Source of the DNA: an uncultured virus (IMG/VR IMGVR_UViG_3300002498_000029)
Taxonomy: Duplodnaviria; Heunggongvirae; Uroviricota; Caudoviricetes
Reading direction: 5' to 3' (one strand)
IMG/VR virus record: IMGVR_UViG_3300002498_000029
Length of the DNA: 64,000 nucleotides
Below are positions 1-64,000 of the stretch, piece by piece. Below the pieces are notes generated by a model. It searched no databases, was not told the DNA's origin, and worked only from the letters and a program-made list of their open reading frames with translations. Position 1 is the stretch's first letter; every line of letters starts with the position of its first letter. The translations under genes were made by a program, and so were the position numbers.

Positions 1-2
1 AT

Positions 3-479
3 GACATGTGCTTACAAAATAAACGAAACAATATCTTGTACAATCCCGCCAAAGGTTTATCTGATTTAATGCTTTTTAAGTAGAAACTGTAGCAGATTAC
101 TACAGACTATACATTTATACCTATTCAAAATATGTCACATACTCAAATTAGGAATATTATGTTATAGTCAAAGATATATATTGATTTTGGCAATCATCCT
201 GGAAAAGATAGAATTCCGAGAGAAGCAGCAATGTGTGGTTGTTGTATAATAACAGGCTGAAATGGGTCTGCTCAGTTTTTTGAAGATGTTAATATTGGTG
301 CACAATTTAAAATAAATATATAGGATAAAGATAACATCAATATGTTGATAAATACGCTAATCAATGTATCAACTAATGATTTTTATAAATATCATATGTA
401 GTTTTAGTATTATCGTAAACAAATAATGCTACAAAAATAGAAAATGATTTTTAACGTAAAATCTTTTTTTATTAGTTAA
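3..479 (+). CDS. Glycosyltransferase-like protein, 5' partial (recoded)
   Basis: Frame open to TAA 477 if TAG/TGA are sense; ILYNPAKG...KIYIDFGNHPGKDRIPREAAMCGC resembles a GT-B C-terminal motif. Confidence 0.65.
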
Positions 480-498
480 ATATTAATTTGGAGAAAAA

Positions 499-1212
499 AT
501 GTATATAATATATAGAATATCTGATTGTGGATATAATAAAGTTAAACCGAGTTACATTAATAATAAAATTTGTTTACAAAACGCATTAAAATAGTTCCCA
601 ATTAATATATGCAATTGACATATTATAGCAGATAATGTATCAGAGGAAACCAAAAGTATGTTATCAGAATACATACACAATAAAGATTTAATTGAATATG
701 TATCGGTAGGTCATGGAGCTGGTACCTTTAATGTAGCATTAGATTTTGCTAAAAATAGTATTAATAATAATCATTAGATAGTATATTTTCTGTAGAATGA
801 TTATTTACACAAACCTCAATCGTTAAAAATATTACAAGAGGGCTTTTCGTTGAACCCTATGTTTGTATCATTATATGACCATCCAGATAAATATATTCCA
901 CCTACATCAGGTGGTAATCCTTATTGTATTGATGGTGCAGAAGATACAAGAGTATATTTAACAAAATCTTGTCATTGAAAAATTACAAACTCTACAACAA
1001 TGACATTTGCTATTAAAAAAAGTAATTTAGCAATTGTAGAACTGATTTTAAGAAAACATACTTAGGGAACACACCCATATGATTTTGAAATGTTTATTGA
1101 GTTGATGTAGAATGGACATTTATTGATAACACCAATTCCAGGATATTCTACACATGGTGAAACAGCTTGATTAACACCCTTAACGGATTGGAGTCAAATA
1201 TGTTTAGTGTAA
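499..1212 (+). CDS. Glycosyltransferase (GT-A/GT2-like)
   Basis: GGAG RBS; VYFL(TAG)NDYLHKP, FVSLYDHPDKY, H(TGA)KITNSTTMTFA, PGYSTHGE. Confidence 0.7.
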
Positions 1213-1253
1213 TTATGCCAAAAAATATAATAATATAAAGGAGAAAAATATTT

Positions 1254-3198: not shown

Positions 3199-3214
3199 TT
3201 TGAAGGAGAAAATA

Positions 3215-4075
3215 ATGATAACAACAATTGGCATAATAGGACAAGGATTTGTAGGATCAGCAGTTTATAATGGTATGAAAGAATATTTCAACATATTAAC
3301 ATATGATATAGATCCATTAAAATTTAGTAACACATAGTCCTTATAGGAAATAATTACACAATCAAATATATGTTTTATTTGTGTTCCAACTCCAATGAAA
3401 AAAGATGGTAGATGTGATAAAAGTATTCTCATAAAGCTACTCAACTAGATAGATACAATATGTAGTATAGTAAATAAATAGATAATATTAGTTATAAAAT
3501 CAACTATCCCACCGGGAACAACGTAGTATCTTAATAATTAGTTTGAAAAATTACATATAGTGTTTAATCCATAGTTTTTAACATAGGCAAATGCTAATGA
3601 TGATTTTAAAAATCAAAATAGAATAATTATAGGTGGAGATAGACCATACTCTACTTAGGTAAAAAACATATATTCAATAGCATTCCCTGGAATACCTATT
3701 ATTAAAACTAGTTCAACAATAGCATAGTTGGTTAAATATATAACTAATACATTCTTAGCAATGAAAGTATCATTTTCAAATTAGATTTATCAGCTGTGTC
3801 AATAGATTAATCAAGATTATGATAAAGTAATTGAATATGCAACCTATGATGAAAGATTAGGTAAGACACACTGGACTGTTCCAGGTACAGATGGTGATCT
3901 TGGATATGGTGGACATTGTTTTCCAAAAGATATAGCAGCATTAAAAAATCTTATGGATAATTTAAATTTAGATACAACAATACTTACAGCAGTAATTAAA
4001 AAAAATGATTTAGTTAGAACTGATAGGAACTGAGAGAGACAAAAGGGCAGAGCTGTTTCAGAAGATTTTAATTAA
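3215..4075 (+). CDS. ugd: UDP-glucose/GDP-mannose 6-dehydrogenase family (short form)
   Basis: IGIIGQGFVG, FICVPTP, VIKSTIPPGT, FNP(TAG)FLT(TAG), A(TAG)LVKYITNTFLAMKVSFSN(TAG), GYGGHCFPKD. Confidence 0.92.
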
Positions 4076-4141: not shown

Positions 4142-4444
4142 ATGATTACATTTGAACAGCAATAGTATAATGACGCTTTAGAATATATCAAATCTAAACT
4201 TAATTTAGATGAATTAGAATCATTAGATATAGATGATTAGATATTTAGAGCATTAAAAATATTAGATAAAATACAAGATGATAACTTTATATCATTATTT
4301 GAAGAACTAACAGAAAGATATGAAGATGAAGTTAGTGAATTAAAAGATGAGATTGACGAATTAACCGATGTAATTAGTACATTAGAAGATGTAATTAGTA
4401 CATTAAATGATGAAATTGATACTTTACATGAAAATATGTTTTAA
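4142..4444 (+). CDS. Hypothetical acidic coiled-coil protein
   Basis: GAGG RBS; two in-frame TAG, otherwise GAA/GAG; ends TAA. Confidence 0.65.
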
Positions 4445-4468
4445 CTATAAATAAAAAGAGGTTACAAA

Positions 4469-4702
4469 ATGAAAACATTATTAAATCAAATTCAACTAGA
4501 TCTAATAGATAAACTTATGCCACTAGTTTATACTGTTATGTCAACAACTATTTTAATTATCGTAACACTATTAACTTTATATAATACTGCTATATTAATA
4601 ATAAATAATGTATCTATACCTGAAAAGATTACTACTATTACTATTATAGTTTTAGTTACATTGATGTGGTCTTATTTTATTAAGCATTGTATTAAAAAGT
4701 AA
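4469..4702 (+). CDS. Hypothetical membrane protein (no recoded codons)
   Basis: ORF track; AGAGGTTACAA leader; two hydrophobic segments. Confidence 0.65.
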   Translation: MKTLLNQIQLDLIDKLMPLVYTVMSTTILIIVTLLTLYNTAILIINNVSIPEKITTITIIVLVTLMWSYFIKHCIKK

Positions 4703-4733
4703 TTGTGATAATTTTGCTGTATCTAAGTATAAT
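4701..4733 (+). promoter_or_regulatory. Conserved promoter motif, copy 2
   Basis: TTGTGATAA 4703-4711, TATAAT 4728-4733. Confidence 0.75.
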
Positions 4734-4763
4734 TAAATTAGATTATAAATAAGAGGTTACAAC

Positions 4764-5039
4764 ATGAAAAAGGCAATTAAAGTCTATAAACAAACTTATT
4801 ATGAAACAACTTGTCCTTATTGTAATGTTTATACTGTTTCTAGTCATGATAGAGATATTACTAAAGAAGAAATGGAATTACATATACAAGAGTGTGAATA
4901 TAATCCAGCAAATAAATATTGTAGAATATGTAAGTATTCAGAAATGATTATTCCTGGTGAATTTACATGTAAAAAAGAATTATGTGAAGATGGTGGATGT
5001 AAATCATTTAAACTAAAAAAAGTAAAAACTGGAGTATAA
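4764..5039 (+). CDS. Hypothetical Cys-rich (Zn-binding) protein (no recoded codons)
   Basis: CPYC, H...C, CRIC; AGAGGTTACAA leader. Confidence 0.7.
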   Translation: MKKAIKVYKQTYYETTCPYCNVYTVSSHDRDITKEEMELHIQECEYNPANKYCRICKYSEMIIPGEFTCKKELCEDGGCKSFKLKKVKTGV

Positions 5040-5040
5040 G

Positions 5041-5496
5041 TTGCAGACTTTTTTACCATACCAAAACTTTATACAATCTGCCAAGTGTTTAGATTATCGT
5101 AGACTTGGAAAGCAAAGGGTTGAAGCAAAACAACTTATAAATATATTAGAAGGTAAGAATACATCAAAGGCTTGGACGCATCACCCGGCTCTGCTTATGT
5201 GGAAAGGTTATACTGATACTCTTAAACTATATCATGATATAATGATTGCTGAATGGATAAATCGTGGTTACAAGAACACTATGCAATTATATTGTGGAAA
5301 TGTATGTAAGCAAACTCTTCTTACAGTAGATTATCAATTTTCTGGTAATTTTGAAAATCCAATATGGCTTAAAGATGAATTTTGTAGTTTCCATCGAGCA
5401 ACTTTACTTTATAAAAATTATGAATATTATAAACAGTTTAGTTGGACTGAAACACCTAAATATGAATATTTATGGCCAGTAAAAATAGCTAAATAA
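5041..5496 (+). CDS. Pyrimidine-dimer DNA glycosylase / DenV-related (MSMEG_6728-like) protein
   Basis: MQTFLPY..F..SA..LD.RRLGKQRVEAKQ...HPA.LMW.GY; TTG start; no TAG/TGA. Confidence 0.85.
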   Translation: MQTFLPYQNFIQSAKCLDYRRLGKQRVEAKQLINILEGKNTSKAWTHHPALLMWKGYTDTLKLYHDIMIAEWINRGYKNTMQLYCGNVCKQTLLTVDYQFSGNFENPIWLKDEFCSFHRATLLYKNYEYYKQFSWTETPKYEYLWPVKIAK

Positions 5497-5532
5497 ACTG
5501 TATAAGATATATAAAAAAAATAGGGAGTAAAA

Positions 5533-5751
5533 ATGTTTATATTTTGGTTAGGTATTATAATAGTACTATTTTTTGTAATTGGAATGCCAATAATTACCTT
5601 TATTTGGATGAGAATAGAAGACCCATTTAAATTTGGAAGCGATGATGACTTTTATGTTTTATGTGGATTCTTATGGATGGTAAGTATACCATTTGCAGTA
5701 TTTAAACAACTTGGTAAATATTTAGACAATAAAAAATTAAAAGGCAAATAA
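5533..5751 (+). CDS. Hypothetical membrane protein (no recoded codons)
   Basis: ORF track; GGGAG RBS; hydrophobic. Confidence 0.65.
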   Translation: MFIFWLGIIIVLFFVIGMPIITFIWMRIEDPFKFGSDDDFYVLCGFLWMVSIPFAVFKQLGKYLDNKKLKGK

Positions 5752-5752
5752 A

Positions 5753-6007
5753 GTGTAGTGTAAAGATATTTTATATTCAATATTATTTTAGACGTTTATT
5801 GATCTTTCATTATTTAATCCTAAAACAAGACTATTTCATTGGAATATTATAAACCCTATATACAAGTTTTTATTTTAGAAGTATAATTTATCAAAGAAAT
5901 AGGTAAATTTATAGTTAATTTAGACATATAAAGATAATAGATTTCAATATATGTTAATTGAAGGTATTCAATTATGGAAATAGCATTTTCATGAGGATGG
6001 TAAATAA
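5753..6007 (+). CDS. Hypothetical protein (TAG-recoded)
   Basis: GTG start, fills the gap exactly, ends at TAA overlapping next ATG. Confidence 0.5.
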
Positions 6008-6177
6008 TGGCATTATATCAATGTAAAAAATGTGGGTAGTATGTTTGCATATAGTCAACCAACGATCAACAAGAACATGAAAAAGTTTGCAAATCAGATA
6101 TAAAATTGATGTAGAAAAATGGATACATTAGAGAGTTAGAAGTAAATCGAATATTTAATTTCTTAACAGGGAGATAA
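6007..6177 (+). CDS. Small Zn-finger-like protein
   Basis: MALYQCKKCG(TAG)YVC...HEKVC. Confidence 0.55.
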
Positions 6178-6178
6178 T

Positions 6179-6388
6179 ATGAAGTGGACAAGATCTAAAG
6201 ATTATATAAACCGTATTGAATTTCACTCTGATAATACTAGTCGGATATTTATTGATACTCAATTTGATATGAATACATTACAACATTTCTATGTATTACA
6301 TGTCATTTATCCCAATTCTGCATTTGATTTAGAAACAGTATCAAAGAATTTAGCTTATCTTAAAAAGCTTGGCGTAGAATATAGTTAA
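6179..6388 (+). CDS. Hypothetical protein (no recoded codons)
   Basis: ORF track; GGGAG RBS. Confidence 0.6.
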   Translation: MKWTRSKDYINRIEFHSDNTSRIFIDTQFDMNTLQHFYVLHVIYPNSAFDLETVSKNLAYLKKLGVEYS

Positions 6389-6407
6389 ATAAAAAGAGGT
6401 TACAAAA

Positions 6408-6773
6408 ATGAATATATTAATTATTTTTACAGTAAGTCTTATTTTATCATATATTATTTTTAATATTAAACATTATTATGAATATAAAAAATCATATAAA
6501 CTATATAATAATATGTATAAATAGTTTTGTAGATAGCAATCTGATGAATAGTTATTAAATAATTATAAACTTATATTAGAATTATTATCAACAAAATAGT
6601 AGAATAAATTTAATGAATTAATAACAAAATATTCTACTATTGAACCGTATAGAATTAAACAATCAAGAAGTTCATACAAAAATTTTAGAAATCAAAGAAA
6701 ACTATCGTTTAATGTTTATTGTTTTGTATTATATTTACTTGGTAGATATTCATTCTAGACATTTAGATATTAA
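6408..6773 (+). CDS. Hypothetical protein with N-terminal TM segment
   Basis: AGAGGTTACAA leader; open to TAA with TAG as sense. Confidence 0.6.
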
Positions 6774-6793
6774 ATAAATAAAGAGGTTACAAA

Positions 6794-7312
6794 ATGAAAT
6801 TAAAACATGTTTTTATGAAAAGACACTTTACAAAGGATGATACATTTAGTCATGCGACCTTTCATCCAATACCAGAGAATAATATATATAACCGCTATCT
6901 TTGCCAACTTAGATTTGCTTGGCCAGAATTATACAATAGTGATGAAGGTAAAAGAGTAGAAAAGTTTTTAGATAAACTTTGGTTTGTTAATGATGACTAT
7001 ATTGGTAAAAATATTTGTGAATTCTGGATTATGGGTGATGGAACGGAAAAATACATACCAAATTTATCTAGACCCACGAATACTCCAATTAAGACTGTAA
7101 GAAGATTTAGAAAAGCTCTTAAAAACAAGTATTCCAAAATACTACCGAATGGTACTAAAATAATGATGGACTATAGATACCAAATTAAAATATCTGGAAA
7201 ATATCGAGATTGCGGTGTTCTAGGAACAATCAAAAACAATCTAACAGTTGAAGATAGTGAAAGAATAATCAGAAAGCAAATGAGTGATTATGTTAAAATT
7301 TATGGAAGGTAA
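6794..7312 (+). CDS. Hypothetical protein (no recoded codons)
   Basis: 172 aa ORF; AGAGGTTACAA leader. Confidence 0.8.
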   Translation: MKLKHVFMKRHFTKDDTFSHATFHPIPENNIYNRYLCQLRFAWPELYNSDEGKRVEKFLDKLWFVNDDYIGKNICEFWIMGDGTEKYIPNLSRPTNTPIKTVRRFRKALKNKYSKILPNGTKIMMDYRYQIKISGKYRDCGVLGTIKNNLTVEDSERIIRKQMSDYVKIYGR

Positions 7313-7314
7313 AA

Positions 7315-7545
7315 ATGAAAATAATAAGAATAGATAAAGCTAGAGATGGCGGTACAATTTGTTTTGAATATGAAGATGGACACGAACTTTATATTGATAA
7401 TAGAATAGGGTCAAGAACTACAAGTCAATTTTACGATGATTATCCTGAACATAAAAATGCAAAAATCGTAAGAATGACAAATGAAGATATACATAATCTT
7501 ATCTGTTGTATGATGGAATATTACCATAAACTGAAAAGTGATTAA
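7315..7545 (+). CDS. Hypothetical protein (no recoded codons)
   Basis: ORF track; RDGGTI...YIDNRIGS. Confidence 0.7.
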   Translation: MKIIRIDKARDGGTICFEYEDGHELYIDNRIGSRTTSQFYDDYPEHKNAKIVRMTNEDIHNLICCMMEYYHKLKSD

Positions 7546-7744
7546 GTACATATTGATGACGTGTAGTTTGTATTTACATAGAATGGTAATAAAATAATAG
7601 ATTATGTATTCATATAGTCAGATGGTGGATATTGATATATATAGGAAAGTGAGTTGTAGAGAACTGATAATGTATATACCTGAATTGATATGAAATAGTT
7701 GGTATAGACGGCAGTAAATAATCTAACATAAAATGAATATAGTT

Positions 7745-8278
7745 ATGAAACTAAAAGAATTGATAGATAGAAACCCAATATTCAACAAAGCTTATTTTTA
7801 TGAATGGTATTGTAGACCATAGGATGAAACAATAGATGACCCAGATGAGCATTATGAATCACACTTAGAAGTATTTAATAGACTTAAACAGATGAAACCT
7901 TACACCGGGCCAGGTGAATATCCAGCTAAGATAGCAATATGTTATATTTCAAAAGAATAGAATGATGATTGGGATTATAATGATGTGTATGGTTTAAGTT
8001 TAACCACGGATGAATCATATGCTATAGAATTTAGACCTTGGGCAGAATGGTTAGATATGGACATAGATGAAGAAACATTAAGTAATTATCTAGAATCAGA
8101 AATAATTGTTCATTGTATATGGGAAATGACATTTTGTGGTTATGATAATGATGATGTTCAATAGCAATGGAGTGGCATTGTGTGGAAATGTGATAAAATT
8201 AAATAGTCTAATATTGATGAGTTAATAGAAAGCGGTGAGATAATTCCGTTGAATTTTAATGATGATGAGGATGAATAA
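7745..8278 (+). CDS. Hypothetical protein (DUF6557-like)
   Basis: YAIEFRPWAEWL.M.I...EIIVHCIWEMTFCGYD; few TAG, Trp as TGG. Confidence 0.65.
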
Positions 8279-8868
8279 TGTTAGGATTTTTAGAAAGACG
8301 TAAAAAATAGTTATAGCAATTTGGAAAGACACTTCTAGGAGTTCAAGCCCTTTGTGAAAAAGTTAATAGTTAGTCATTTACAAAGGCACTAGCAATGAAT
8401 TTAGCTTTTAATAAACCTAGTTATGATCATTGGAGAGACCGCCTAGAACAAAAAATACTTAGTAATTTAATTTATGGCAAGTTAAAATAGTTGGATGATA
8501 GTATATAGTTAGCAGAATATCCATCTTTTAAATATAATGAAATTAACCACACTGTTATGACTAAAAAAACTCCATATGTTTTGCTAGATAAACCAGAATA
8601 TTATGTGTAGGATAATGAGTAGTGTTTACTAGCTATTGTGAATAGCTTGAACTATCATGAATTATTAGATGTTATGTATAAAGAAAGAGATGAGCTTAGA
8701 GGAATAAATTCTAATGCTAAAATATTTTTCTACACTATAAACATTGTGTCAGGCGTATTCTTAGATCCATATGCTGATAGTTTATCAGTACTAGATATTG
8801 GCATGCCGATTATGCTAAGATTTGCAATTGCGCGAGCTGGCAAGGTGCATAATGAAACCAATATATAA
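8278..8868 (+). CDS. Hypothetical protein
   Basis: TAATG overlap; extends track ORF 8638-8868 upstream through TAGs. Confidence 0.65.
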
Positions 8869-9250
8869 AATAGTCGATTAGGGTAATAATACTGTGATTG
8901 AATATCATGATAGTGTAAGACCTGATCCAGATGGAAATGGTGTTCAACGATATGGTGTTGGCGATAATGATGAAGGCGGTTGATACCATAATGAATACGA
9001 TAAAAACTTAACCGTAAAATGGGGTCTATTGCGTAATGATGTTAGTTATTTTGATGGTGATAAAGTTTCTGTTGTAATATATGATGGAAATGGTCCAGAT
9101 TATGGTGATAAAGTGTGTTAGGATTGTATAATAAAATATAATGAAGAAGAAGGATAGCTACAGATTTTTGATAATACAAATGGGGAGTATGTAGATTCTT
9201 TGAGTAATGTTTTATTTCAATATGGCTGGAGCCAAATTAAACATATATAA
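8852..9250 (+). CDS. Hypothetical protein
   Basis: Open to TAA with TAG/TGA as sense. Confidence 0.55.
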
Positions 9251-9259
9251 AGAGGAACA

Positions 9260-10456
9260 ATGATAAATAAAGAAACAATAAGAAACGATATTAAGTAGTC
9301 ATTAAAGATAATATAGAATAAATATTCTACTAGAATATAGTCATGTAAAATTGAATAGCCAAAAAATATTTTAATTACTGAATATACTGATTCTGAAATG
9401 ATAGATAAGCTTGTTGATGAAGGATATGAAAATTCACAAAATGACTATCAACTTAATAGTAGATGTTCTGCATAGGTTCATAAATGGTTGCTTAGTACTG
9501 AATTAGGTCGATTTATATCTTATATGAAATCTGAAAATTTTAATATAGTATTTAGTTCGGCGGCAGAATATATGAACACACTGCCAGTTTCATTTTATAT
9601 TCATAATGATTAGCACCTATTTGAGATTGCACAACTATTAAAATTACAGGGATATGATAAAATTGGAATATATTCAATACGATTAATATCTAGTTTATCC
9701 TTAGACTATAGCATTAAAACTATAATTAGAATACATACATTATCTACTTGTCCAATACTTACTAATAAAATAAATGATTATCGTAATAAAATATTAAAAT
9801 TAGATAATTCTATATTATTTTAGAATATACAAGATATTCATAGAAGATCTAAAATATTTATTAAAACATTATAGTTAGCTAATATTGAGATAGAATATAC
9901 AAAATAGTCTGTTCCGTGTTTCATGGTAAAAGATAAATTTGTAATTGCTAGAGGATATATTATTCCAGTTTAGAATTCTGATATTACAACATTTGTAGAA
10001 TAGAACTTTGTCAATAATGGAGTAAAGAAGATTATAATATCGCAAGCAAAGATATATCCTGATATGTTAGATAAAAATTTAAAAATATTTTAGATGTTTG
10101 TAATATGGATTCATGTAATAAATTATGATAAGTTGTTTATACAAGAATGGGAAAAAAAGAAGCATGAAGAGATTAGAACAGCTGTAGATACGACATCAAA
10201 AACTTTAAAATATTTAAAACTTATATCAAAATAGACTGTAGATAAAAATGAAATGGATGATTTACGATTTACTATGATTGAGTCTTTTATGACTACAATA
10301 CCAAGATAGTTTCTTTGTATGTCTGATGAATTTTGGGAAGAATATGATAAATGGAAAAAATCTAAAGAATCTAAATTAACTGGAATTCGTCATTATGGTT
10401 ATAATAGAGAAGATTATGTAAGTAATCATACTGTACTTCCGTGGGATATTACATAA
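9260..10456 (+). CDS. Hypothetical protein (~398 aa)
   Basis: GAGGA RBS; long frame with TAG as sense and TGG Trp. Confidence 0.65.
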
Positions 10457-10457
10457 T

Positions 10458-10718
10458 ATGAGAAAATGTAATCAATGCCATAGACGAGTAAAATATAATA
10501 TAGACTATTCATATATTTGTGTTAATAAGAATTGTATTGATTACAATAAAAAGTTGTATCTAATAGGATATAAATTTAGATCTAGTATAGATGAATTACC
10601 AGCAGTACACTACTATAATGTATATACAATGGATGAATAGGGAAAAACTCATAGTGGTGTATATGATGAATAGCAAAAACGTAAAGCTATACGGATTAAA
10701 AAAATAATTAAATTTTAA
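10458..10718 (+). CDS. Hypothetical Cys-containing protein
   Basis: Track ORF extended through TAG to TAA. Confidence 0.5.
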
Positions 10719-10753
10719 GATAAACTAGATATTTATATACATAGGAGTAATTT

Positions 10754-11164
10754 ATGGACCATTATGAACAAAATTTAATATGAACTTATACTACTAAAAT
10801 TGGTAAAGTATATATAAGAAAAACTTATAGTAAGTAGTTTTAGAAGTTATTAAAAAAACATAAAATACTTCCAGCTGCCACATATTATAATAAATCTGGT
10901 GATATTGTAGGATATGATTATAATTTTAATACTGATATTAAAAAATAGATATAGAAAGCGGTTAAAAAAGATAAACCCGCTAAAGTAATAAAAACTAAAT
11001 CGCCTAGTGTTAAAAAAGCAAAAGTAATAATAACTAAACCATTAAAAGACAAACCATTAAAAGACAAACCAATAAAAGACAAACCATTAAAAGTAGGTAG
11101 TAAATTAAAAAAGCCATCTAAGGAGGTAGTAAAAAATGACAGATCTAATAAAAAGACAAAATAA
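10754..11164 (+). CDS. Lys-rich protein with KP(L/I)KD repeats
   Basis: AGGAG RBS; very basic C-terminus. Confidence 0.65.
11036..11093 (+). repeat. 15-bp tandem repeat AAACCATTAAAAGAC, nearly 4 copies
   Basis: Directly visible; encodes KPLKD. Confidence 0.9.
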
Positions 11165-11588
11165 TACACCTAAGTGGGTATTACATTCACATCCATTCGA
11201 TCTATTATGAAAAAACTTATTTGATAATGATTCTATATTTGATACAGTATTTAATAGTAAAATTGATTATCCGTTAGATATTTATTAGACTGATAATGAT
11301 CTTGTAATATAGATTGCTGCAGTAGGATTAAGTAAATAGGATGTTAATATTGAAATTAAAAACAATAATTAGCTAATTATATCATATGATAGTACAGCTA
11401 AATAGTGTGAATAGAAAACATGTATTAAACGTGGAATAACTAGAAGAAGTTTTAATTTCGGATGAAAAGTTGCACCTACATATAACTTAAATAAAATAAA
11501 TGCATCACTATAGAAGGGATTATTAAAGATAAATATTCCAAGATCATAGGAAGATGTATCAATAACTAAAAAAATAGAAATACAATAA
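11136..11588 (+). CDS. Small heat shock protein, Hsp20/alpha-crystallin family
   Basis: AAGGAGG RBS; YPLDIY(TAG)TD..LVI(TAG)IAAVGLSK(TAG)DVNIEI...RGITRRSF...ASL(TAG)KGLLKINIP. Confidence 0.9.
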
Positions 11589-11619
11589 AATCTAAAATTA
11601 CTACCTACTTTTTGAAAAT

Positions 11620-11652
11620 AATTGTGATAAATCTGACAAAGGTGATTATAAT
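11620..11652 (+). promoter_or_regulatory. Conserved promoter motif, copy 3
   Basis: TTGTGATAA 11622-11630, TATAAT 11647-11652. Confidence 0.75.
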
Positions 11653-11683
11653 AAACTTAATTAAAGATTATAAGGAGACTATT

Positions 11684-12244
11684 ATGAAACAAGCAAATGT
11701 TATTAGAAATATGAGGAAGAATTCAAAGTTTTTGAATGAATCAATTATAGAAATAGTTGATATTATTTTAGATGTATTATATCAATATAGTAAAGAAGAT
11801 CAATTATTTATCAATGCATATGAAAATGACGATTTTGATGATATTGATTTATTTGATGATGACGACAATGCTATTGATGATAATGATAACTACCCTGATA
11901 CTAATGATACACTGGAAGGATATGGAAAATGTTTTGTTGATGATAGTGATATTGTAATTCAAACAAATCCATTAATATATGGAGAGTATTCTGAAGTAAA
12001 TGATTCTATGCCAATTGAGCTTCAAAATATCATTACATTTGAAGATCATGGTGTAAAGTTTGGTAAATTTACAAAGTTTGGCTCAGTAGAAGAATTTCTT
12101 GATAATGTAGAACAACTTTCAAAAAGAATTAGACCTAGTCGTGGAAATTTAACGGCTCCACAATTTAGGAACCTAGTAGAAGAATGGCGTCTTAATATGA
12201 TTGAAGATGCTATGAATAAAAACGGAATAGAACTTAGTATTTAA
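11684..12244 (+). CDS. Hypothetical acidic protein (no recoded codons)
   Basis: AAGGAG RBS favours ATG 11684 over track start 11612; Glu-rich but no TAG. Confidence 0.75.
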   Translation: MKQANVIRNMRKNSKFLNESIIEIVDIILDVLYQYSKEDQLFINAYENDDFDDIDLFDDDDNAIDDNDNYPDTNDTLEGYGKCFVDDSDIVIQTNPLIYGEYSEVNDSMPIELQNIITFEDHGVKFGKFTKFGSVEEFLDNVEQLSKRIRPSRGNLTAPQFRNLVEEWRLNMIEDAMNKNGIELSI

Positions 12245-12268
12245 ACTAATCTCAATTAGTTAAACGTA

Positions 12269-12308
12269 TACACAGGTTATATAATGATTTAAATATATAA
12301 CCTGTGTA
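12269..12308. terminator. 15-bp perfect inverted repeat (terminator-like hairpin)
   Basis: TACACAGGTTATATA-N10-TATATAACCTGTGTA after a gene end; no clear U-tract. Confidence 0.6.
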
Positions 12309-12388
12309 ATAATTTAAATGTAAGGAGATGCAAATGAAAATGACATTTAAACAACCTGTGTGGAATAATATAGTAAATAATAACTAAA

Positions 12389-12907
12389 ATGAAATACATT
12401 TTACCATTGGTAATAATGTTGATCATATTTCCACAGAATAATTATACCTCCACACAACAAGAAATACAGTATAATGAAGCTGATTTAAAAGAACAAAGAG
12501 ATATTCAAGATATATATAATTGTATTATTTCTTTAAAAAACGTAAATGATAAAAAACAAACTGATTTATATAAATTATCAACATCAATATTAAAATATAG
12601 TAAACAATTTAATATTGACTATAAAGTTTTAATTGGAATAGCATATGTAGAAAGTAGAATGAATAAATATGTAAGTTCTGGTAACAAGTATAAATGTATT
12701 GGAATATTTCAATTAAATGAAACTGTCCATAAATTAGATTCAAATTTAAAATATGATGAAGATTATCAAACACTAAAGGCTTGTGAAATATTAACTTATA
12801 CTATTAAAATGTATAAAGGTAATATTCAATCAGCTTTAAATGGATACAATGGATGGGCAAATGTAAATAATCCATATGCAAGTAAAGTGTTAAACGTAAT
12901 AAAATAA
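12389..12907 (+). CDS. Lytic transglycosylase (SLT domain) with N-terminal signal/anchor (no recoded codons)
   Basis: IAYVESRMN catalytic ES; GIFQL; ALNGYNG; YASKV. Confidence 0.85.
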   Translation: MKYILPLVIMLIIFPQNNYTSTQQEIQYNEADLKEQRDIQDIYNCIISLKNVNDKKQTDLYKLSTSILKYSKQFNIDYKVLIGIAYVESRMNKYVSSGNKYKCIGIFQLNETVHKLDSNLKYDEDYQTLKACEILTYTIKMYKGNIQSALNGYNGWANVNNPYASKVLNVIK

Positions 12908-12916
12908 GAAGGACGA

Positions 12917-13543
12917 ATGAAAAAATATACTGAATAGCAATTAGAACATATGTATAATCAATTCCGATAGATACTAGAAAAATATGTTACTGGTAATAAT
13001 AAGGATGTTATATTATCTTAGCTACTACCAGATTTTGAAACCAATATATTAGTATCACCAGCAGCATCTAAAACATTTTTTAATGATGCCAATCCAGGCG
13101 GGTGGTTAAACCATACATTAAATACAATTAAAATTAGTTTACAATTAATGCAATTATGGCAAAAGAATAATATAAATATTGATTTTACTATTGAATAGTT
13201 AATTCTTGCTGCAGCGTTACATGACTTTGGCAAATTAGGTACAAAAGAATAGATGTTATATTTGCCGTAGACAAGTAAATGGCATGCTGATAGAGGCAGT
13301 GCATATATATTTAATCCTAAGATTCCATTTATGAAAGCTCATGATAGAACATTATTTATACTTCAGCAATATGGCATTCAATTAAATTTTAATGTAACAT
13401 TAGCTATTAAATTATCTAGTGGTATGTACTAGGAAGCAAATAAATCATATTATATGCAGTATGATCAGGTAAATATTTTATCAACGATATTACCACATAT
13501 TATACATCAAGCTGATATGATTGCAGTAAATATTAAAGAATAA
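12917..13543 (+). CDS. HD-domain phosphohydrolase
   Basis: PAAS...PGGWLNHTL...LILAAALHDFGKLG...IIHQADM. Confidence 0.85.
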
Positions 13544-17141: not shown

Positions 17142-18092
17142 TTGATCAATACTACATTATTACAATTATTATAGTCTACAATAAGTATATCTACAACTGG
17201 ATCAAATGGTAATTATAATTTCTATTGTCCAAATTGTCATCATCATAAGCGTAAATTAGTAATAAATATAGATTCGTAGTCAGATGAATTTGGATATTAT
17301 AATTGTTGAACTTGTAATTTAAGTGGAAAAAATTTAATAAATTTATTTAAACAATTATTCCCTAATAGTGTTTAGTCATTATTAGGGATTTTGTCATTAG
17401 TAAAAAGAAATAATAATATATTATTAAATAATTATAATAATACACACTTTAAATCTAAATGTATATCATTACCGCAATAGGCAATATCACTTACTATAAA
17501 ATCTACCCACCCATAGTATACCAATGCAATATATTATTTAACAAAAAGAAGTATAACTTAGTATGATATATATAAATATAATCTACATTATTGCTGATAG
17601 GGCAGATTTGCAAATAGAATAATATTTCCATCATATGATAAACATGGAATACTAAATTATTATGTAGGAAGAAGTTATTATGAAAGTAAATTAAAATATT
17701 TAATGCCATCAATATAGAAAAATATTATATTTAATTAGTTATTTATAAATTGAAAGTAGCCAATTGTCATATGCTAGGGTGTTACAGATATGCTAGCTAT
17801 ACAAACAAATTGTATTCCAATACTAGGTAAGTTTATTCAATAGAAATTATTGACATAGATAATTACTAATAAACCACCTAAAGTATATATTACTTTAGAT
17901 CAAGACGCGTATAATAATGCCATATAGTTAGCAAAGACTTTAAGTAATTTATCTATCAATACTTACATTACTAAGTTTCCAAAAGATACTGATCCTGGAT
18001 AGCTTGGGTTTAATAAAGCGTGGTAGTATATAAATAATAGTGAATAGTTTAATAAAAGATTTTTAATGAATAATATGTTTAAGAGGCAATAA
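17142..18092 (+). CDS. DNA primase (Zn finger + TOPRIM)
   Basis: GGAGG RBS, TTG start; CPNC..H...YNC(TGA)TC; IVIC(TAG)GVTD; LDQDA; DPG. Confidence 0.9.
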
Positions 18093-21000
18093 ATGATCAA
18101 AACAATCTACCATATAGCTGACATACATTGTCCATTATGAATGAGACATGCCTAGTATTAGACAGTGTTTAATAGATTATATTAGGTTTTATAGAAATAG
18201 TCATAGTTAGAATCTACAAGAATAATATTAGCTGGTGATATATTACATAGTAAAAATAATCTATCGCCAGAAGTAGTTAATATGGTTATTGACTTATTAA
18301 ATAATCTAGCAAAATTTTGTAAGGTTTATATTCTATTAGGTAATCATGATATTAATTCTAATAACATAGATAGATTAGATGCTTTAAGTCCAATTGTAAA
18401 AGCATTAGATAATAGTAATATATATTTATCTACTACAACCTAGACTATTATAGATGATAATGTATAGTTTTCTTTTTTAAACTTAATGGAATAGGTTTCA
18501 GGCTAGTTTGGTAAATCAAAATCAAATAATATAAAGATCATGTGTATTCATTAGGCTGTTAATGGTGTTATAGATCAAACTGGGTATACATACACTAATT
18601 GCAGATTAAGTCCATAGTAGTTTAATGTTAATATTGTTATGGCTGGTCATATACATAAATATCAATCATTATTAAAGTAGTCACCATTTGTTGTTTATCC
18701 TGGAAGTCTAGTTCAACAAAATTTTGGATAGAGTTTATAGCATGGTATAGTTAAGTGAGATATACAAAATATAGATAATATAACACATTAGTTTATTAAG
18801 ATATAGAATGATTATGGGTATTATAATATTTAGATTAAACAGGGCAAATTACAACCAGTTAACTTTAAAACTAAAAAACTTAGACTTAAAATCAATTCTG
18901 TAAATACTCAAATAAATCAATTAAAGGATATTATATCTAGTATAAATAAAACTAATAGTATATAGACTTATTCAATAAATAATATTAAAGTATAGTCTAC
19001 TAATACTATATGTGATTAGAAAAACTTAAATAATATATATAATATTGAATATCAAAATAAGTTATTAGAATAGTTTTTAAGGTATAAATATATTAATATT
19101 ACTGATGAATAGATAACTAATATAAAGGGAATCAATACACTATTAAACAGTCAAATGGTGTTTGAAGATAAACAGCTTGGTAATATATGATATCCAAAGA
19201 AGTTATAGTTTTCGAATATGTTTGCCTATGGTCCAGATAATGAAATAGACTTTACTACTTGAAATGGAGTAATTGGTATATTTGGTAGAAATTATTCCGG
19301 TAAATCATCACTATTAGATATTTTATTATTTTGTTTATTTGATAAAACAAATAGATCATCTAAAGGTATTGACATCTTAAATTCAAAGTCAACGTAGTTT
19401 AAATGTAAGTTATAGTTAGATATAGATGGAAAGTCATATTTTATAGAAAGAATTGGTAAAAAAGCTTCAAAACAAAATGATGCAGTATCGGTGACGGTTG
19501 ATTTTTATACATATGATTAGTCTAATATTAAAATTAGTTTATGCGGAACTCAGCGGAGTGACACTAATAAATAGATATGTAAGTATATTGGCAGCTATAA
19601 TAATTTTGAGAATACATTAGGTGTCTTTCAAAAAGCAAATACTGGTTTAATCTTTCAAAAGCAATCATAGCGTAAAAACTTTCTATCAGCCTTACTTGGT
19701 ATAAATTTATTTTAGAAATTATATTCAGCTGCAACATAGTAGATTAAATAGACTAAACTATTATTAAAACAGTATTAGAATAAATTTCCCAAAGAATAGA
19801 TATAGAATAATATTTTAACCATAAATCAATATACTACTAATACAATAGAATTAAATACTAAGATAAAATAGTTATAGATTATTATAGAAAAGTTAAAATA
19901 GTCTAAAACTTTATTATATAGTAAAATAGTTTAGATAGAGTTAAATGATGTAAATATATAGTTATTAAATTCACAAAAATTACAAATATAGTTATCAATA
20001 CAATCTGTAATAAATAATATTAATGATATAACTTTATAGAATAAATATATATAGATTTAGTAGTTATAGAAATAGTTAACTAATATAAATATAGATTAGA
20101 TTAAATAGAATAATAAAACTTTAAATACATTATTATAGCAAGTAAAACAAATCAAAACAGACTCACAATTATTATAGAAAGATATAACTATTTGTAATTC
20201 AAAATTATAGAAGCTTGGTAACTTATAGTATGATCCAAACTGCAAATACTGTATGAATAATATATTTGTTAAGGATGCTATATCAGCAAAAGATAAATTA
20301 ACATAGTATAATAAACAAAAATAGAAGTATATTACATAGGTGAATAACATAGTAAAATCTATACAATAGATATAGCATGTTAAAGATTAGTTAAAATAGT
20401 ATGATAATAAAGTATAGAGTAAATCAAATAAATATTAGACAATAGTATTATTATAGAAAAAGAAAAAATTATTATAGGCCCAACAAATAGATAAACAGAA
20501 ATAGTTATAGTAGATAGAAAAAAAGATAACATAGTATAATAATAATTAGACTAATATACTAAATAATAAGCAGATTGAATAGAAGATAATCTTAATTGTA
20601 AATAAATTAGAATAGAATCAACGAGAATATAATAAGAACAAGATTACGGTAGATAATAACAACTTACAATCAGGAATTTTATTATAGAAGAATATTCAAC
20701 TATAGAAATAGATAGTTAAAATAAATTAGTTATAGATTAAATATAATTTGTATAGTAAATATATATAGGCTATGCATAAAAATGGAATACCATTAAGACT
20801 TATATAGTCATCTATACCATTAATACAAACATAGACTAATAACATATTATCTCTATTAACATAGTTTACATTATAGTTCCAAATAAACTAGAGTAGTATA
20901 GATATATTAAGAGTATATGATTTAGATAATAAATTACCAGTATAGTTAGGTAGCGGATTCTAGCAAACAGTAAGTGATATATCATCAAGAATAGCATTAT

Positions 21001-21218
21001 CTAAAATAAGTAACGCTCCAAGAAGTAATATAGTTATTATAGACTAGAATTTTGGAGCATTAGATAGTAATAACATTATGAAAGTATAGGGAGTATTACA
21101 ATATCTTAAATAGTATTATTAGTATGTATTAATTATAAGTCATATAGATATACTAAAGGGTATGGTAGATGATAGTATAACAGTTATTAAAGATGGATAG
21201 TTTAGTTATATTAGATAA
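18093..21218 (+). CDS. Fused SbcD/Mre11 nuclease - SbcC/Rad50 ATPase (gp47-gp46-like)
   Basis: DIH, GD, GNHD, GHIH, YPGS; G(TAG)NYSGKSS Walker A; CKYC hook; GSGF(TAG); IID(TAG)NFGALD; no TAA between the two domains. Confidence 0.9.
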
Positions 21219-21240
21219 ATAAAATTAATCTATAGTATTA

Positions 21241-21280
21241 TAGCCGAGTAATATTAACTTATTACTCGGCTATTTTTTTT
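21241..21280 (+). terminator. Rho-independent terminator
   Basis: TAGCCGAGTAATA-loop-TATTACTCGGCTA followed by T8. Confidence 0.9.
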
Positions 21281-21357
21281 GTAAATATATTTTGTTATAT
21301 TTTTCATATGAGTATATTTATATTTATATAGTAGTATTTATAGGAGAATAAATAATA

Positions 21358-22189: not shown

Positions 22190-22615
22190 ATGAAAAAAAG
22201 CGAATTAAAACAATTAATTAAGTAGTGTATAATGTAGTAGATTGGATTAAACAAAGATAGTTTTTATAATGAAAATAAATAGATAGTATAGAATGCATTA
22301 TTAAGATTAAAGTAGTGTAATAAACATTTAAGTGGATACTATATTGAAGACCTAAATTGAAATATGAGAGCCGTAGAATATGAATTAGAAAGTCTAAAGT
22401 TTGATAAAGATACTATAGACTTTATTATTAGTAGATTACGTACTCATAATCCTGACTTTGATATATCTGAAGAATTTTTTAATCACAACGTAAGCGATCA
22501 CGAAAGAACAATACAAGCAATTAATATTGCATGTGATATTTCTGAAAGTTATTCAAAGTCAAGTGCAAATGTTGACAAGTGGCGTAAACAAGTAAAAAGA
22601 TCGTTAGGATATTAA
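22190..22615 (+). CDS. MKKSELKQLIKE-leader hypothetical protein
   Basis: In frame with track ORF 22364-22615. Confidence 0.75.
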
Positions 22616-55057: not shown

Positions 55058-55062
55058 TAAAT

Positions 55063-56778: not shown

Positions 56779-56780
56779 CT

Positions 56781-57131: not shown

Positions 57132-57156
57132 AAATAGCAATCAAAATATATAACTT

Positions 57157-57200: not shown

Positions 57201-57257
57201 AAATATTTTTTTACTTCAATATATTTATATATATAGTATAGAGAAAGGAAGTATAAC

Positions 57258-58030: not shown

Positions 58031-58456
58031 ATGATTAAATTACGTAATATTATACTATAGATATTTGGATAGAGTACTAGAAGCATTACAGTAAATACTA
58101 AATAGGTCATATTTAACAAATATCCTAAATATTGATATAGCTAGTTTATAAATACCCTAAAGCAAATAATACCGGTAAGTAATAAAAATACGTATGAGTT
58201 AGACTAGATTTTAAATAAGTTATTAAATAATGATGATCCATATAGTTATTACTTACATATAGTATAGTAGTATAATAATATCAAATATATATATTTTTTA
58301 ATTCAATTTAACAATAACATAAACATCGAGGCTAGAAAATATCATTAGTTTCAACAATGGTTTTTTTATATCAATGGTAAAAAACATATGAATAAATTTC
58401 AAACAAAAAAATATTTAAGTAAAATAATAAAGGATTTAAATAATAATGGCAAATAA
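58031..58456 (+). CDS. MIKLR-leader hypothetical protein
   Basis: MIKLRNIIL(TAG). Confidence 0.65.
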
Positions 58457-59439: not shown

Positions 59440-60027
59440 ATGATACAAGCAACATACGATCAACTTAAAACAATAGCAACTCGCAAATCATATAAATGAT
59501 TTACAGATATATACGATTTAAACGTATGGGGTATAAGAAATTCAAGTAGAATAGCTAATGCCTTTGATGATACTTTAGCCATAGCATATATAGATGCCAA
59601 TAAAAACAAAAGAATATTTACATGCCCAATGACAGTTGACCCAGGATTATATTACTTAAAGAACCCATTAAACCACAAGGGTTGTGCAATTATACCAGAA
59701 GGACAATACTTAGGTTTATGAATACTAGGACTACATAAAGGTTATACTGCATTAGCCCAAAGAAAAGCTATTAAAGTATTTAGAGATAATGATAAAAATA
59801 ATTAGTTGGGTGGGCAATTACAAACAATCTAGTAGCTAGGCGGGTTTAATTTACATAGAGCTTTATAGAATGGAATAACTAATACAGTAGATAAATTTAG
59901 TGCTGGTTGTCAAGTAGTACAAATACCAGAAGATTTTAATTATGTAATATCACTAGTAAAGCTTCAAGACAAATATATTAAATCTAAAATAGTATCTTAT
60001 ACACTTATATCAGAAAGGGAACTTTAA
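59440..60027 (+). CDS. Putative peptidoglycan-active Cys enzyme (YkuD/L,D-transpeptidase-like), endolysin candidate
   Basis: LNVWGIR...FDD...TVDPG...GQY...GLHKG...RDND...GFNLH...SAGCQV. Confidence 0.65.
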
Positions 60028-60033
60028 TAATAA

Positions 60034-61335
60034 ATGATAACTTCATCAATATAGATTTGAAACAAGTTAAATATAGTAGGTAATACTAGTGATCTTCCAT
60101 AGATATGATTATCTGATATACAAGATTCAATATATTATGATTCAGATTATCCATATAAATGAAATGTATTCTAGATGGATATTTAGTATTTAAGATTATT
60201 TATAAATGATGGGTATTCTGGAAATATTAGTTCTACATATGAATCAGGTAGTGATTATACTAGTGTAATATTTAATCATTTAAAATAGTGTTATATATAG
60301 AGACCTGTTGCATTAAGTGCTACTAATATAACTGATGTTAGCTTTACTGCTAATTGAAGTAGTGTTGTTGGTGCTACTAGTTATTAGATTGATATTGCTA
60401 CTGATAGTTTATTTAGTAATATTATACAAAGAATTAGTTGTGGTAATGTGATATTATATAATGTTACTGGGTTAACTAGTAATACTACTTATTATTATAG
60501 AGTGAGAAGTATTAGTAGTGGTGGAGTTAGTGGAAATAGTGAAGTGGTAACACAACTTACATACGCCACTGGAGCGCCTGCTTACTTTGCTAGAATGACA
60601 ACTCAAGGTGATACAACATATAAGGCCAAAATAAGTAGTTTTATTGGTGCATTAGAAAGTGCAGGTGTTTGAGCATCATTAGATTCATTACACTTATTTG
60701 CCAATAAGGACGATTACACAGATAATATACCGGCTTCATTTATAAATATGATAAACCCAACTGATACTATAGCGGCTAGAACAGGAGTTAGTGGTTCAAA
60801 TTTGACGTATACTACAAATCAGGGGTGGTTGGGAGCCTCCAATGCTGCTATTGATTTAAATCAATTATTAACTAATAGAGCAAAATATAGTTTAAATAGT
60901 GGCTCTATGTTTGTCTATGTTTATACAACCACCGCAGCAGGATATGTGGCATAGATTGGAACTTATATTGGAGCATCTCAAGCATCTATAATGGATTGTA
61001 GAGTTGATGGTGATAAGATGAGACTTTACCTCAATGGTGGTATGTCTGATACCGTGAATGCATTACCTGGTGCCGGAGTTGGGCTTTTCTCTCTTAATAG
61101 GACTGCTGCAAATAACATAGATGTTTACAAAAATGGTACTTTCGTGGAGTCTCTGGCAAATAATAGCAGCGCAATCCCAACCGGTAATGTCTATGCATTG
61201 GCAGCTAATATAAACAATGTCATCGCCAATACAGCTACTGGTCGGAGAATATCTCTATGTGGATTTGGTGCACAAATGGATGCTACCAAGCAAGCTGCAC
61301 TCTATGCGGCATTTATGACATATCTAACAGGATAA
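60034..61335 (+). CDS. Tail/adhesin protein with Fn3 domain and LamG-like C-terminus
   Basis: ATNITDVSFTAN(TGA)SSVVGATSY...VTGLTSNTTYYYRVR; joins three track ORFs. Confidence 0.8.
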
Positions 61336-61369
61336 TATACATAATTAATCATACTGGAATATATAACTA

Positions 61370-64000
61370 ATGCAAAAAAACGATAAATACATTGTAGACA
61401 TAAAAACATATGATAAATCACTAACGGATAGTGGTTCATTTCCATATACTCATGGTTTAACTACATAGTAGTCTGCTAGAGTAGTAGCTAAAATGAAACT
61501 AGAAGATGATACCTTTATTAATATTAGTGGATCACAATAGTTAGTACCAGCTAATGGATCATTAGTAAGAGTATTATCATTTGATTTTGAACCACATAAA
61601 GGTTATGATACTATTTTAACTATGAATGATTATGATACAGGTTCTGGTAATATGTATAGTAGTAGAGTTATAAAATATTAGTATGGATCAATAAATGTTT
61701 ATAATTAGAATAATATTAGATTAACTTCTAGTATATTATCATATACTTATGGTAGATAGGATTCTAATACTATTCCATTAAATACTAGAGGTAATTGTTA
61801 TGTTTAGTTAGATACATTATTTAGTGTTAAAGGTAATATTATATTAGGAACTACTTCTAGTAATTATAGTATTAGATCATTAAGAGGATTTAATGTCAAT
61901 TTTAGTTATAGTGGTAGCACAGATAGAACTAACTTTATGAGGTAGTTGTCATATTTAAATGATATTAAATCAACTTGATCTTATTCATAGTTATGCCAAT
62001 TTAGTTGGGGTATGTATTATGGTAGAGTAATAACTGATCCTAGTGCTAGTGTATAGACTGGCAGTGCAAGATTATTATACAATCAAATTTAGAATTTAGA
62101 CTTAATACCATATACTAAATTTTTATGGTATGGTTAGGCTGGTACAGTTGTTAGTCAAAGTAGAGTTAGTAAAATATATAGTATAAATACTGGTAGTGTA
62201 GTAGACGGTACAAGTTCTGGTATTTATAGACCATATTATGCTGGTACTATTGCTCCAATTTAGAAAAATAATTTATTAGTAGACTATTCTTCATCTCAAT
62301 ATTATTATATAAGTCATTCAAATATATCATTTGGAACTACTTCTCCTTGAACATTAGTTTCAGTTATTGGTTGACATGGACCTAAAGTATATAATGCTAA
62401 TGGAGTATAGACCCAATTAGTATATGGTAATAATGGTTCAGCAATAAATTTATCAGTATCTGGTAGTACCAAAATTCAAATATCATCATCAACAGTAAAT
62501 AGATAGTTTTTAACTAATACTTCTATTAAGAATTATCTTGCAACTAGAGCTATGATAGCAATTACATATGCTGGTGATGTGAGTGGATCTACTACTACTT
62601 ATTTTAATGGAGTTAGCCAATCAGTATCTACAGGTTCTAGATATGCTTTTGACTTTAGTGGATTCTTAAGTGGAACAGGTACTAGTACTAATAATTATTT
62701 AGGTAGATATTATTATCACCATATTATTAGTAAATCTTTATCACAAGATGAAATAACTGCTCATTATAATGTACTTAGATCATATTATCCTTAGATTTAG
62801 TCAGTAAATATAACTACTCAAAGTTGATCAACTCATAATTTAGGTGTAGTTTCAGATAGAAGCGGAAGTGTTATAAATAATGTTAATTGAACAAGTTCTG
62901 TAGTTACTAGCGGAGTATGTAGTTCATCACTATTTGACGATTCTGATTTATATACATAGTCTGGAACAACATAGGTAATTGATGGTATTGGTTATTTTAC
63001 AGCGTCAAATAATACATATATTACAAAATCATATACTGGTCATTCATTATTGAATAATTATTATTTATTATCAGCTAAATGTTAGTCGTGAGATACTGGT
63101 TCTGCAAAATTTATAATAGGAACAGTTTCATCATCTATATTTGTACCAACTGCTAGTAATATACATTCATATTATATAAAAGCTAATACTGCTAATAGTT
63201 CATTTGGTATTGGTGGTGTAGATTATTTAAGCGGATCATTTAGCAGTATGTCAATATCAAGAATAGGCTGAAACGACATAGGTAACTTATACTCATACTT
63301 AATAACAACAGGTTCATACACTCACTATGATGCTTTAAAATAGTGTGCAGCTTGAAGATATTATAATGATGATGCAAATACCTATGCATTATATGGTAAA
63401 CTATATAATAAATATGCTAAAATGTTAATCTAGTCCTACCCACCATTATGTACATCTCCTACTTCAGCATCATATGTACCTATGTATCAAATACCATTAT
63501 TAGATGGTACTGGTATAAATACTTTAAAAACATATTCAGGTTCAACATTAAGAGTATCAAATTCACTATACTGATCTTCATCAATAAATGATACTAATAC
63601 TACAGGATTATCTTTAATTGGATCAGGATGATGTGATGCTACTGGATCATTTAGACATGCTACTCAAAGATGTTACTTATGATCAAGAAATGTAACTTCA
63701 TCAACATATTTGCCCATAACTTCATCAATAGGATAGAATAGACCATATATAATTTGAAGAAGTTCTAGTTTTATTACTGATGGAGATGATTCAACAACTT
63801 AGGGATATGCTATAAGATTAGTAGATACAGGTATAGATTATAATATAATAAATAATTATACTAGTAGTTAGTGTAAAGATAAATTAAATAGAATAACATA
63901 TGATATAGAGGGTTTAACTGCTAGCTTAATGACTTATTATAATAGTAGTGTAAATGGATCAATTATACCAACATAGATAAACTTTAGGAACTTTAGTAGT
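61370..64000 (+). CDS. Large protein with LamG-like and FISUMP (Fibrobacter succinogenes major paralogous)-like domains, 3' partial
   Basis: QS(TGA)STHNL...AA(TGA)RYYNDD..TYALYGKLYN.YA...GLSLIGSG...G.F...YL(TGA)S...GYAIRLV. Confidence 0.75.

Follow-up and report, generated by a model that had tools for sequence, protein, structure and literature searches.

The stretch analysed here, the window, comprises 64,000 nt (+ strand) of the uncultured tailed-phage record IMGVR_UViG_3300002498_000029; all coordinates refer to it. Sequence comparisons confirm the code that the original prediction had assigned to it, in which TAG is read as glutamate, TGA as tryptophan, and TAA is the sole stop. This code is borne out by the cover of open frames and by alignments to homologues, to paralogues within the window and to a widespread protein family. 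The host probably uses the standard code; the phage terminates translation at UAA only, with decoders probably encoded outside the window. The same pair of codon meanings exists only in NCBI table 31, where TAA also specifies glutamate.

1..64000, + strand: phage segment that stops at TAA alone and reads TAG as glutamate and TGA as tryptophan (packing of open reading frames, coding cover).

Reading frame, codon meaning and relatives

The window has a G+C content of 25%. Under the standard code (table 11) just 4 open reading frames (ORFs) of at least 150 aa are found in 64 kb. Cover by open frames of at least 100 codons is 0.09 in the standard code; reading through TGA raises it to 0.21, reading through TAG to 0.68 and reading through both to 1.17. 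With TAA as the sole stop the window resolves into 81 non-nested ORFs, all on the + strand, with gaps of a few bases, and 97.6% of it is coding. Each of the 81 ORFs terminates at TAA and is followed by a short gap before the next gene; among them there is no sign of TAA as a sense codon. Gene lengths agree with those of homologues. In the ORFs of at least 100 codons (20,232 codons) TAG occurs in frame 923 times (4.6% of codons) and TGA 181 times; over all 81 ORFs in-frame TAG numbers 933.

The meaning of both codons was read mainly from the following genes.

3200..4075, + strand: UDP-glucose 6-dehydrogenase (UGDH)-like gene, 12 TAG and 1 TGA; Pfam and PHROG matches, solved UGDHs at a best E=1.8e-28.
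17142..18092, + strand: DnaG-type primase, 17 TAG and 3 TGA; PHROG_47 at E=6e-32.
22636..24435, + strand: baseplate wedge (gp6-like) gene, 33 TAG and 3 TGA.
49404-50183, 51128-51925, 51925-52686 and 53413-54192, + strand: four paralogues of a widespread family (PHROG 12810).

In alignments of the UGDH-like gene to three solved homologues, TAG faces glutamate in the conserved motifs NPEFL.EG and AEL.KY, and glutamate or aspartate in F.NE. In the primase, aligned to DnaG 4e2k, the TAG of VIC-TAG-GVTD faces the Toprim glutamate of LLEGFMD. In comparison with three related standard-code phages, 133 of the 561 aligned TAG positions correspond to E; the residues next in frequency are D (57), K (55) and Q (32). 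Control codons in the same comparison gave a profile like that of TAG for GAA (E at 26 of 113), and Q at 58 of 283 for CAA. Mean BLOSUM62 fit for TAG is best with E (1.2) and reaches 0.54 with Q. Well-conserved columns under TAG, taken from 142 related loci, hold E in 14 of 16 cases, D in 2 and Q in 0.

TGA faces W at 19 of 72 positions in the three standard-code phages; TGG behaves similarly (9 of 35). The paralogue family was aligned with 62 of its best 150 homologues and the four window paralogues. In the 62 homologues, three family columns occupied by TGA hold W 61, 59 and 61 times, and a column occupied by TAG holds E in all 62. At identical columns the window paralogues exchange TGA for TGG and TAG for GAA. 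Solved homologues, paralogues, the three related phages and the 62-member family thus agree on TAG as glutamate and TGA as tryptophan.

Tabulated codes were tried and rejected. Table 4, which keeps TAG as a stop, is ruled out by the 933 in-frame TAG in 81 ORFs. Table 31, in which TAA is also glutamate, is ruled out since TAA ends all ORFs and gene lengths fit homologues. Table 15, in which TAG is glutamine, is ruled out because E outfits Q by BLOSUM62 and Q stands on no conserved TAG column.

TAG behaves as a full sense codon. It spells 63% of glutamate codons. Among 130 Glu-Glu dicodons, TAG-TAG was observed 50 times, with 52.2 expected under independent choice, and triple TAG runs occur twice in the window. 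The tandem TAG TAG first noted near 18615 and 22235 lie at 18615-18620 and 22235-22240. The nucleotide after TAG and TGA is distributed as after GAA and TGG. Since tandem TAG is not avoided and next-base usage is unchanged, the window holds no trace of selection softening competition with release factors.

Gene order at ~12.9-32.8 kb is as in Microcystis phage Mel-JY01, Flavobacterium phage immuto and the 484-kb uncultured phage LR756508, and the baseplate gene 22636-24435 shares 34-40% identity with theirs across 99% of its length. With an alignment as the query, 80 loci kept from at least 599 relatives of this gene in viral contigs showed 35-41% identity. With TAG and TGA entered as X, 38 loci were found in viral contigs (30-37%). 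Metagenome contigs yielded 21 loci (29-37%) and genome contigs 1 (35%). A query of viral contigs with the E/W translation gave no relatives, because five of the six patterns held E or W, mostly TAG or TGA here. All 142 of 142 distant loci (29-41% identity) are open under the standard code, with a lowest cover of 0.74 as against 0.09 for the window.

Closer relatives are met as proteins. The baseplate gene of the window is present in the public protein collection as the fragments P0156 and P0171, with TAG given as Q and the chain cut exactly at TGA. Ten more fragments, 58-79% identical, come from other contigs (836 to 19,088 bp; Logan, ENA) and from at least six closer relatives. Each contains 0 to 4 Glu and as many as 21 Gln, with Q, sometimes E, opposite TAG of the window. 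Eight of the ten stop immediately before a TGA of the window, and the other two where a further relative has Trp. A small clade therefore appears to share the double code, as judged from these protein fragments. The confirmed observation is stronger than first stated in that it would reach a lineage. Public proteins of this phage carry glutamine where glutamate belongs and are split into pieces; being translated in this way and cut at TGA, they leave the lineage invisible to ordinary annotation.

The weakly recoded block and the code of the host

Recoding is weak in one block of small genes. It contains nine genes with neither TAG nor TGA by codon counts.

4142..13543, + strand: early-type, weakly recoded block of 22 small genes (codon counts).
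4469-4702, + strand: gene without TAG and TGA.
4764-5039, + strand: gene without TAG and TGA.
5041-5496, + strand: gene without TAG and TGA (Pyr_excise).
5533-5751, + strand: gene without TAG and TGA.
6179-6388, + strand: gene without TAG and TGA.
6794-7312, + strand: gene without TAG and TGA.
7315-7545, + strand: gene without TAG and TGA.
11612-12244, + strand: gene without TAG and TGA.
12389-12907, + strand: gene without TAG and TGA (SLT).

Genes free of both codons number 9 of 22 in the block and 0 of 59 elsewhere. The nine contain 61 glutamate codons of the form GAR and 16 TGG. TGA:TGG is 6:38 in the block as against 167:62 elsewhere (p=1.4e-13), and TAG:GAR is 74:170 as against 859:370 (p=1.5e-30). 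TGA is also scarce in the TAG-bearing genes of the block, with TGA:TGG of 6:22 against the same 167:62 (p=1.6e-7). A switch in two steps, with TAG decoded before TGA, was considered and set aside, as the block is also poor in TAG and a general gradient of recoding fits equally well.

Relative synonymous codon usage of the nine genes correlates with that of the other genes at r=0.956 (0.993 between two halves of those genes), and G+C at third codon positions is 0.164 in the nine and 0.170 in the rest. Codon usage and third-position composition match, and the nine genes are therefore native. At its right end the block shares synteny with phage immuto. Native genes that avoid both codons argue for a host in which TAG and TGA are stops, or in any case do not mean glutamate and tryptophan. 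Most likely the host uses the standard code and the switch is made by the phage. The earlier claim that the phage and not the host supplies the change is so borne out indirectly, by codon choice. Early genes in the standard code, together with phage suppressor tRNAs, are described for single-codon recoded phages in the available text of Borges et al. (10.1101/2021.08.26.457843).

A near-identical upstream sequence, (A)AGAGGTTACAAA, stands right before the ATG at 4142, 4469, 4764, 6408 and 6794. It forms a strong Shine-Dalgarno-like site, which suggests that the host likely uses Shine-Dalgarno-led initiation. Of 80 upstream regions, 28 contain AGGA; the background is 3.8%. The SLT transglycosylase and an endolysin-like gene of the window point to a walled host and not to a mollicute.

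Bacterial RF1 reads UAA and UAG; RF2 reads UAA and UGA. A host with table 4 would read TGA as tryptophan and lack RF2, the phage would add a TAG decoder, and RF1 alone would release at UAA. Such a host is improbable. It would agree with the low G+C, which is like that of many table 4 lineages, and with the Shine-Dalgarno-like sites, and TGA-to-Trp reassignment is reported in four bacterial phyla (PMC13462651, accessible text). It would exert no pressure to avoid TGA, yet TGG strongly prevails over TGA in the block. The wall-lytic genes speak against a mollicute, and the problem of termination would stay, with RF1 still to be kept off the 91 TAG of a single gene while releasing at TAA.

A host with the same double code, infected by a phage without decoding machinery, is very unlikely. 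The phage would then have no termination problem, and the pattern of codon use is the sole contradiction in the window. That pattern disfavours the idea, for avoidance of both codons in nine native, standard-code genes would be pointless in such a host. All known bacterial reassignments concern UGA, according to the available part of PMC8629427.

Equally remote is a host with table 25, in which TGA is glycine and RF2 is lacking; the phage would override glycine by its own tryptophan decoder and add a TAG decoder. Avoidance of TGA in early genes would be explained, such hosts are of low G+C, and phages of such hosts with differing codes are reported (PMC10746230, accessible text). TGA aligns with tryptophan, though, and glycine is outside the 12 commonest residues aligned to it. 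Rival decoders would yield mixed proteins, and a 257-kb phage would be an unlikely parasite of a host with a very small genome.

An absence of recoding, with in-frame stops due to decay, introns or assembly error, is hardly conceivable: the bare presence of such stops is all that favours it, and it is opposed by 1,104 in-frame TAG and TGA in otherwise intact, tightly packed ORFs, by the specific amino-acid match, by sequencing-run contigs that follow the first 20 kb without differing letters, and by relatives with the same pattern.

Decoding and termination

The original prediction saw no decoding machinery in the window, and this was upheld by ARAGORN, Rfam, Pfam and folding of gaps. ARAGORN found no tRNA genes in the 64 kb. 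Rfam, at E up to 1, gave no tRNA and a single chance-level snoRNA match (E=0.38). Release-factor, aminoacyl-tRNA-synthetase and tRNA-modification families of Pfam are represented by 0 of 71 window ORFs translated with TAG as E and TGA as W. The five longest intergenic gaps contain no cloverleaf and hold terminator-like hairpins or nothing; strong hairpins are present in 3 of the 5, with a U run after two of them.

21219..21357, + strand: intergenic, terminator-like hairpin followed by a U run (z=-4.86).
57132-57257: similar terminator-like hairpin (z=-4.37).

The window makes up about one fourth of a ~257-kb jumbo tailed phage with a T4-type baseplate. The protein at 11612-12241 is recorded as coming from a 256,585-bp contig, so that ~193 kb lie outside the window. 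A 40-base stretch of the window had no exact match in viral or metagenome contig collections, and 9.1 kb of it gave no match to phage records by megablast.

Five standard-code relatives were checked for tRNAs (L144, L160, L161, L143, L157). All five carry tRNA genes (1, 3, 28, 2 and 21), none of them in the part that shares synteny with the window. Four of the relatives, among them those with just 2 or 3 tRNAs, have a tRNA-Glu(UUC), and the five copies of it are ~66% alike. A glutamate tRNA would thus be habitual cargo of the clade and the obvious raw material for a CUA decoder.

For a phage that changes the code in a standard-code host, the following course is proposed. The early-type native genes would be readable before the change, and all other genes would need the new code. 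The decoders would most probably be phage tRNA genes in the ~193 kb beyond the window. The UAG decoder would be a Glu-type tRNA with anticodon CUA. For UGA it would be either a Trp-type tRNA carrying the anticodon UCA or a tRNA with CCA changed so as to read UGA. The concern of the original prediction over how a CUA tRNA would be charged with glutamate is reasonable; GluRS reads the tRNA anticodon. Host RF1 and RF2 would still release at UAA and would be out-competed or blocked at UAG and UGA.

Several points weigh against this reading. Tryptophan for TGA is drawn from fewer sites than glutamate for TAG, and conserved columns under TGA are mixed: W 2, R 1 and Q 1 in the three reference phages, and R, W, Y and Q once each at the 142 loci. 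The code of the host is deduced from gene usage of the phage and not from a host genome. The closer relatives are known as proteins alone, and the stop that ends their fragments is taken to be TGA. Decoder, release factor and synthetase are all unseen within this quarter of the genome. In the five relatives no suppressor anticodon was found (ARAGORN on 18 of 30 tRNA loci). An RF-1 domain occurs in 0 of 5 of them and a GluRS/GlnRS catalytic domain likewise in 0 of 5, so the family offers no precedent for protein factors. Suppressor tRNAs are given for only 40% of TAG-recoded and 35% of TGA-recoded genomes in the available text of Borges et al. (10.1101/2021.08.26.457843), so that their absence from a complete genome would not be unusual; release factors are reported there in a handful of recoded genomes.

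The original prediction spoke of a termination paradox. As logic this was overstated: suppressor tRNAs compete with release factors, and removal of a factor is therefore not logically required. The quantitative burden stands and is greatest in one gene.

18093..21218, + strand: fused SbcD/SbcC-like nuclease-ATPase, 91 TAG and 4 TGA in 1,041 codons, the heaviest recoding; it contains the tandem TAG at 18615-18620.

By simple arithmetic, a 50% yield of this protein at full length would need more than 99% read-through per codon. When a single codon is recoded, the second factor covers the two remaining stops, and one factor may therefore be lost or swamped. Here the problem is quantitative: RF1 is needed at UAA, or RF2 replaces it and yet attacks UGA. 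A lineage with the double code must hold each factor off its second codon and still release at UAA.

It is conceivable, though on balance unlikely, that the lineage goes beyond two suppressor tRNAs and actively disables RF1 at UAG and RF2 at UGA, as a natural counterpart of the engineered strain 'Ochre'. The means could be a UAA-specific phage release factor, or enzymatic modification of the host factors or the ribosome. The window's candidates for such enzymes would be the four paralogues at 49404-54192, which resemble ADP-ribosyltransferases and could act before phage genes are read if their N-terminal leader, found also on at least a dozen other proteins, targets the capsid.

Phages known to be recoded (crAss-like, Lak, Agate and Jade phages, among others) have one stop reassigned, TAG to Gln (table 15) or TGA to Trp (table 4), in the available texts of the two reports (10.1101/2021.08.26.457843, 10.1101/2020.07.20.212944). 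Like the recoded phages described by Borges and by Yutin in these texts, the phage of the window has low G+C, in-frame stops concentrated in structural and late genes, and a presumed standard-code host. A subset of genes is likewise compatible with the standard code, here 9 of 81, all within 4142-13543. Genes also become whole on read-through and each codon aligns to one amino acid, here for two kinds of stop. Unlike in those phages, both codons are reassigned in the same genes and TAG is Glu, not Gln. The available text of Borges et al. (10.1101/2021.08.26.457843) contains neither the term 'glutamate' nor 'both TAG and TGA'. Recoded phages and bacteria in the literature searched free one stop only, which spares one release factor any conflict; in this phage both factors are in conflict.

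NCBI table 31, the nuclear code of Blastocrithidia, gives TAG and TGA identical meanings (PMC12153298, available text). Unlike the present tailed phage, in which TAA is a stop, its bearer is a trypanosomatid eukaryote that has one eRF1 and uses UAA for Glu as well as for termination. In engineered Escherichia coli 'Ochre', as far as the available text goes, UAA is the sole stop and UAG and UGA are free for amino acids, as here (PMC11903333). Unlike the phage, that strain was built by deletion of RF1, the changes S205P and E170K in RF2, and a tRNA-Trp mutation (PMC11903333, same text). 'Ochre' is the sole UAA-only bacterial system found in the literature searched. That literature, supplementary tables aside, yielded no natural case of reassignment of both codons in a phage or bacterium, nor a phage that reads TAG as glutamate. 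Complete genomes of the phage and its relatives should show a natural solution to UAA-only termination. Genetic-code engineering might gain an amber tRNA that accepts Glu, an opal Trp tRNA and possibly a device for UAA-specific termination.

Leader-bearing genes and other features of the window

The four paralogues at 49404-54192 tentatively resemble the ADP-ribosyltransferase fold, with middling Z scores. Their family has 3,218 representatives at E<=0.001. The fold is marked by a triad of Arg, Ser/Thr and Glu; in the family E237 is invariant, and R43 and C97 are nearly so. The AlphaFold2 model has a pLDDT (predicted local distance difference test) of 83. The best rows of VIA-align for it are ADP-ribosyltransferase-fold proteins, with Z of only 6.2 to 3; the neighbours are Arr (Z 6.2), then toxins, PARPs and tRNA 2'-phosphotransferases. 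Foldseek gave no match at E<=0.001, and a profile search of the PDB gave nothing meaningful (E=0.31). Pfam has no family for the first paralogue and gave four single-member matches among 66 members, at E 0.00018 or weaker.

One of two related leaders of 10-12 residues, MKK(S/T)ELKQLIKE or MIKLKQLILE, opens at least 16 proteins that are otherwise unrelated. Both leaders end in (I/L)-x-E, and that glutamate is usually spelled TAG. They resemble the capsid-targeting leaders, with the prohead-protease cleavage site, of the T4 internal proteins. If the leader is a capsid-targeting signal, its bearers would travel in the virion and be injected along with the DNA.

21358-22615, 49404-54192, 54608-57131 and 58031-58456, + strand: leader-bearing genes (N-terminal leader).
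22190-22615, + strand: small leader-bearing gene with the tandem TAG TAG at 22235..22240 (sequence).
36299-40705, + strand: four tandem paralogues of ~370 aa, conserved at the N-terminal end and diverging toward the C-terminus; probably fibre or receptor-binding proteins.
52686-53420, + strand: P-loop kinase-like gene amid the four paralogues of PHROG 12810.

Other phage genes encode a gp25-like baseplate wedge protein, RusA, HNH, Hsp20, and the SLT transglycosylase and endolysin-like protein mentioned above. Sugar-modifying enzymes and many fibre-like proteins are also encoded. The gene 40708-42225 specifies a protein of ~20-residue repeats of the form Y-T-x-I-K-E-R-L-V-Y-S-F-L-x-S-K-T-I, in most of which glutamate is spelled TAG.

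DNA of the window is present in four runs of one sample from one study (a hydrocarbon metagenome); no RNA run is listed. The run contigs are short, with a word depth of ~0 to 5, and contain nothing past the window. This may be the source sample, and hence not independent support. At 8734 and 14616, in all four runs, a contig tracks the window to that base and then diverges; position 8734 is also bridged unchanged by other contigs. The divergence could be due to a second phage variant or to a repeat elsewhere in the genome.

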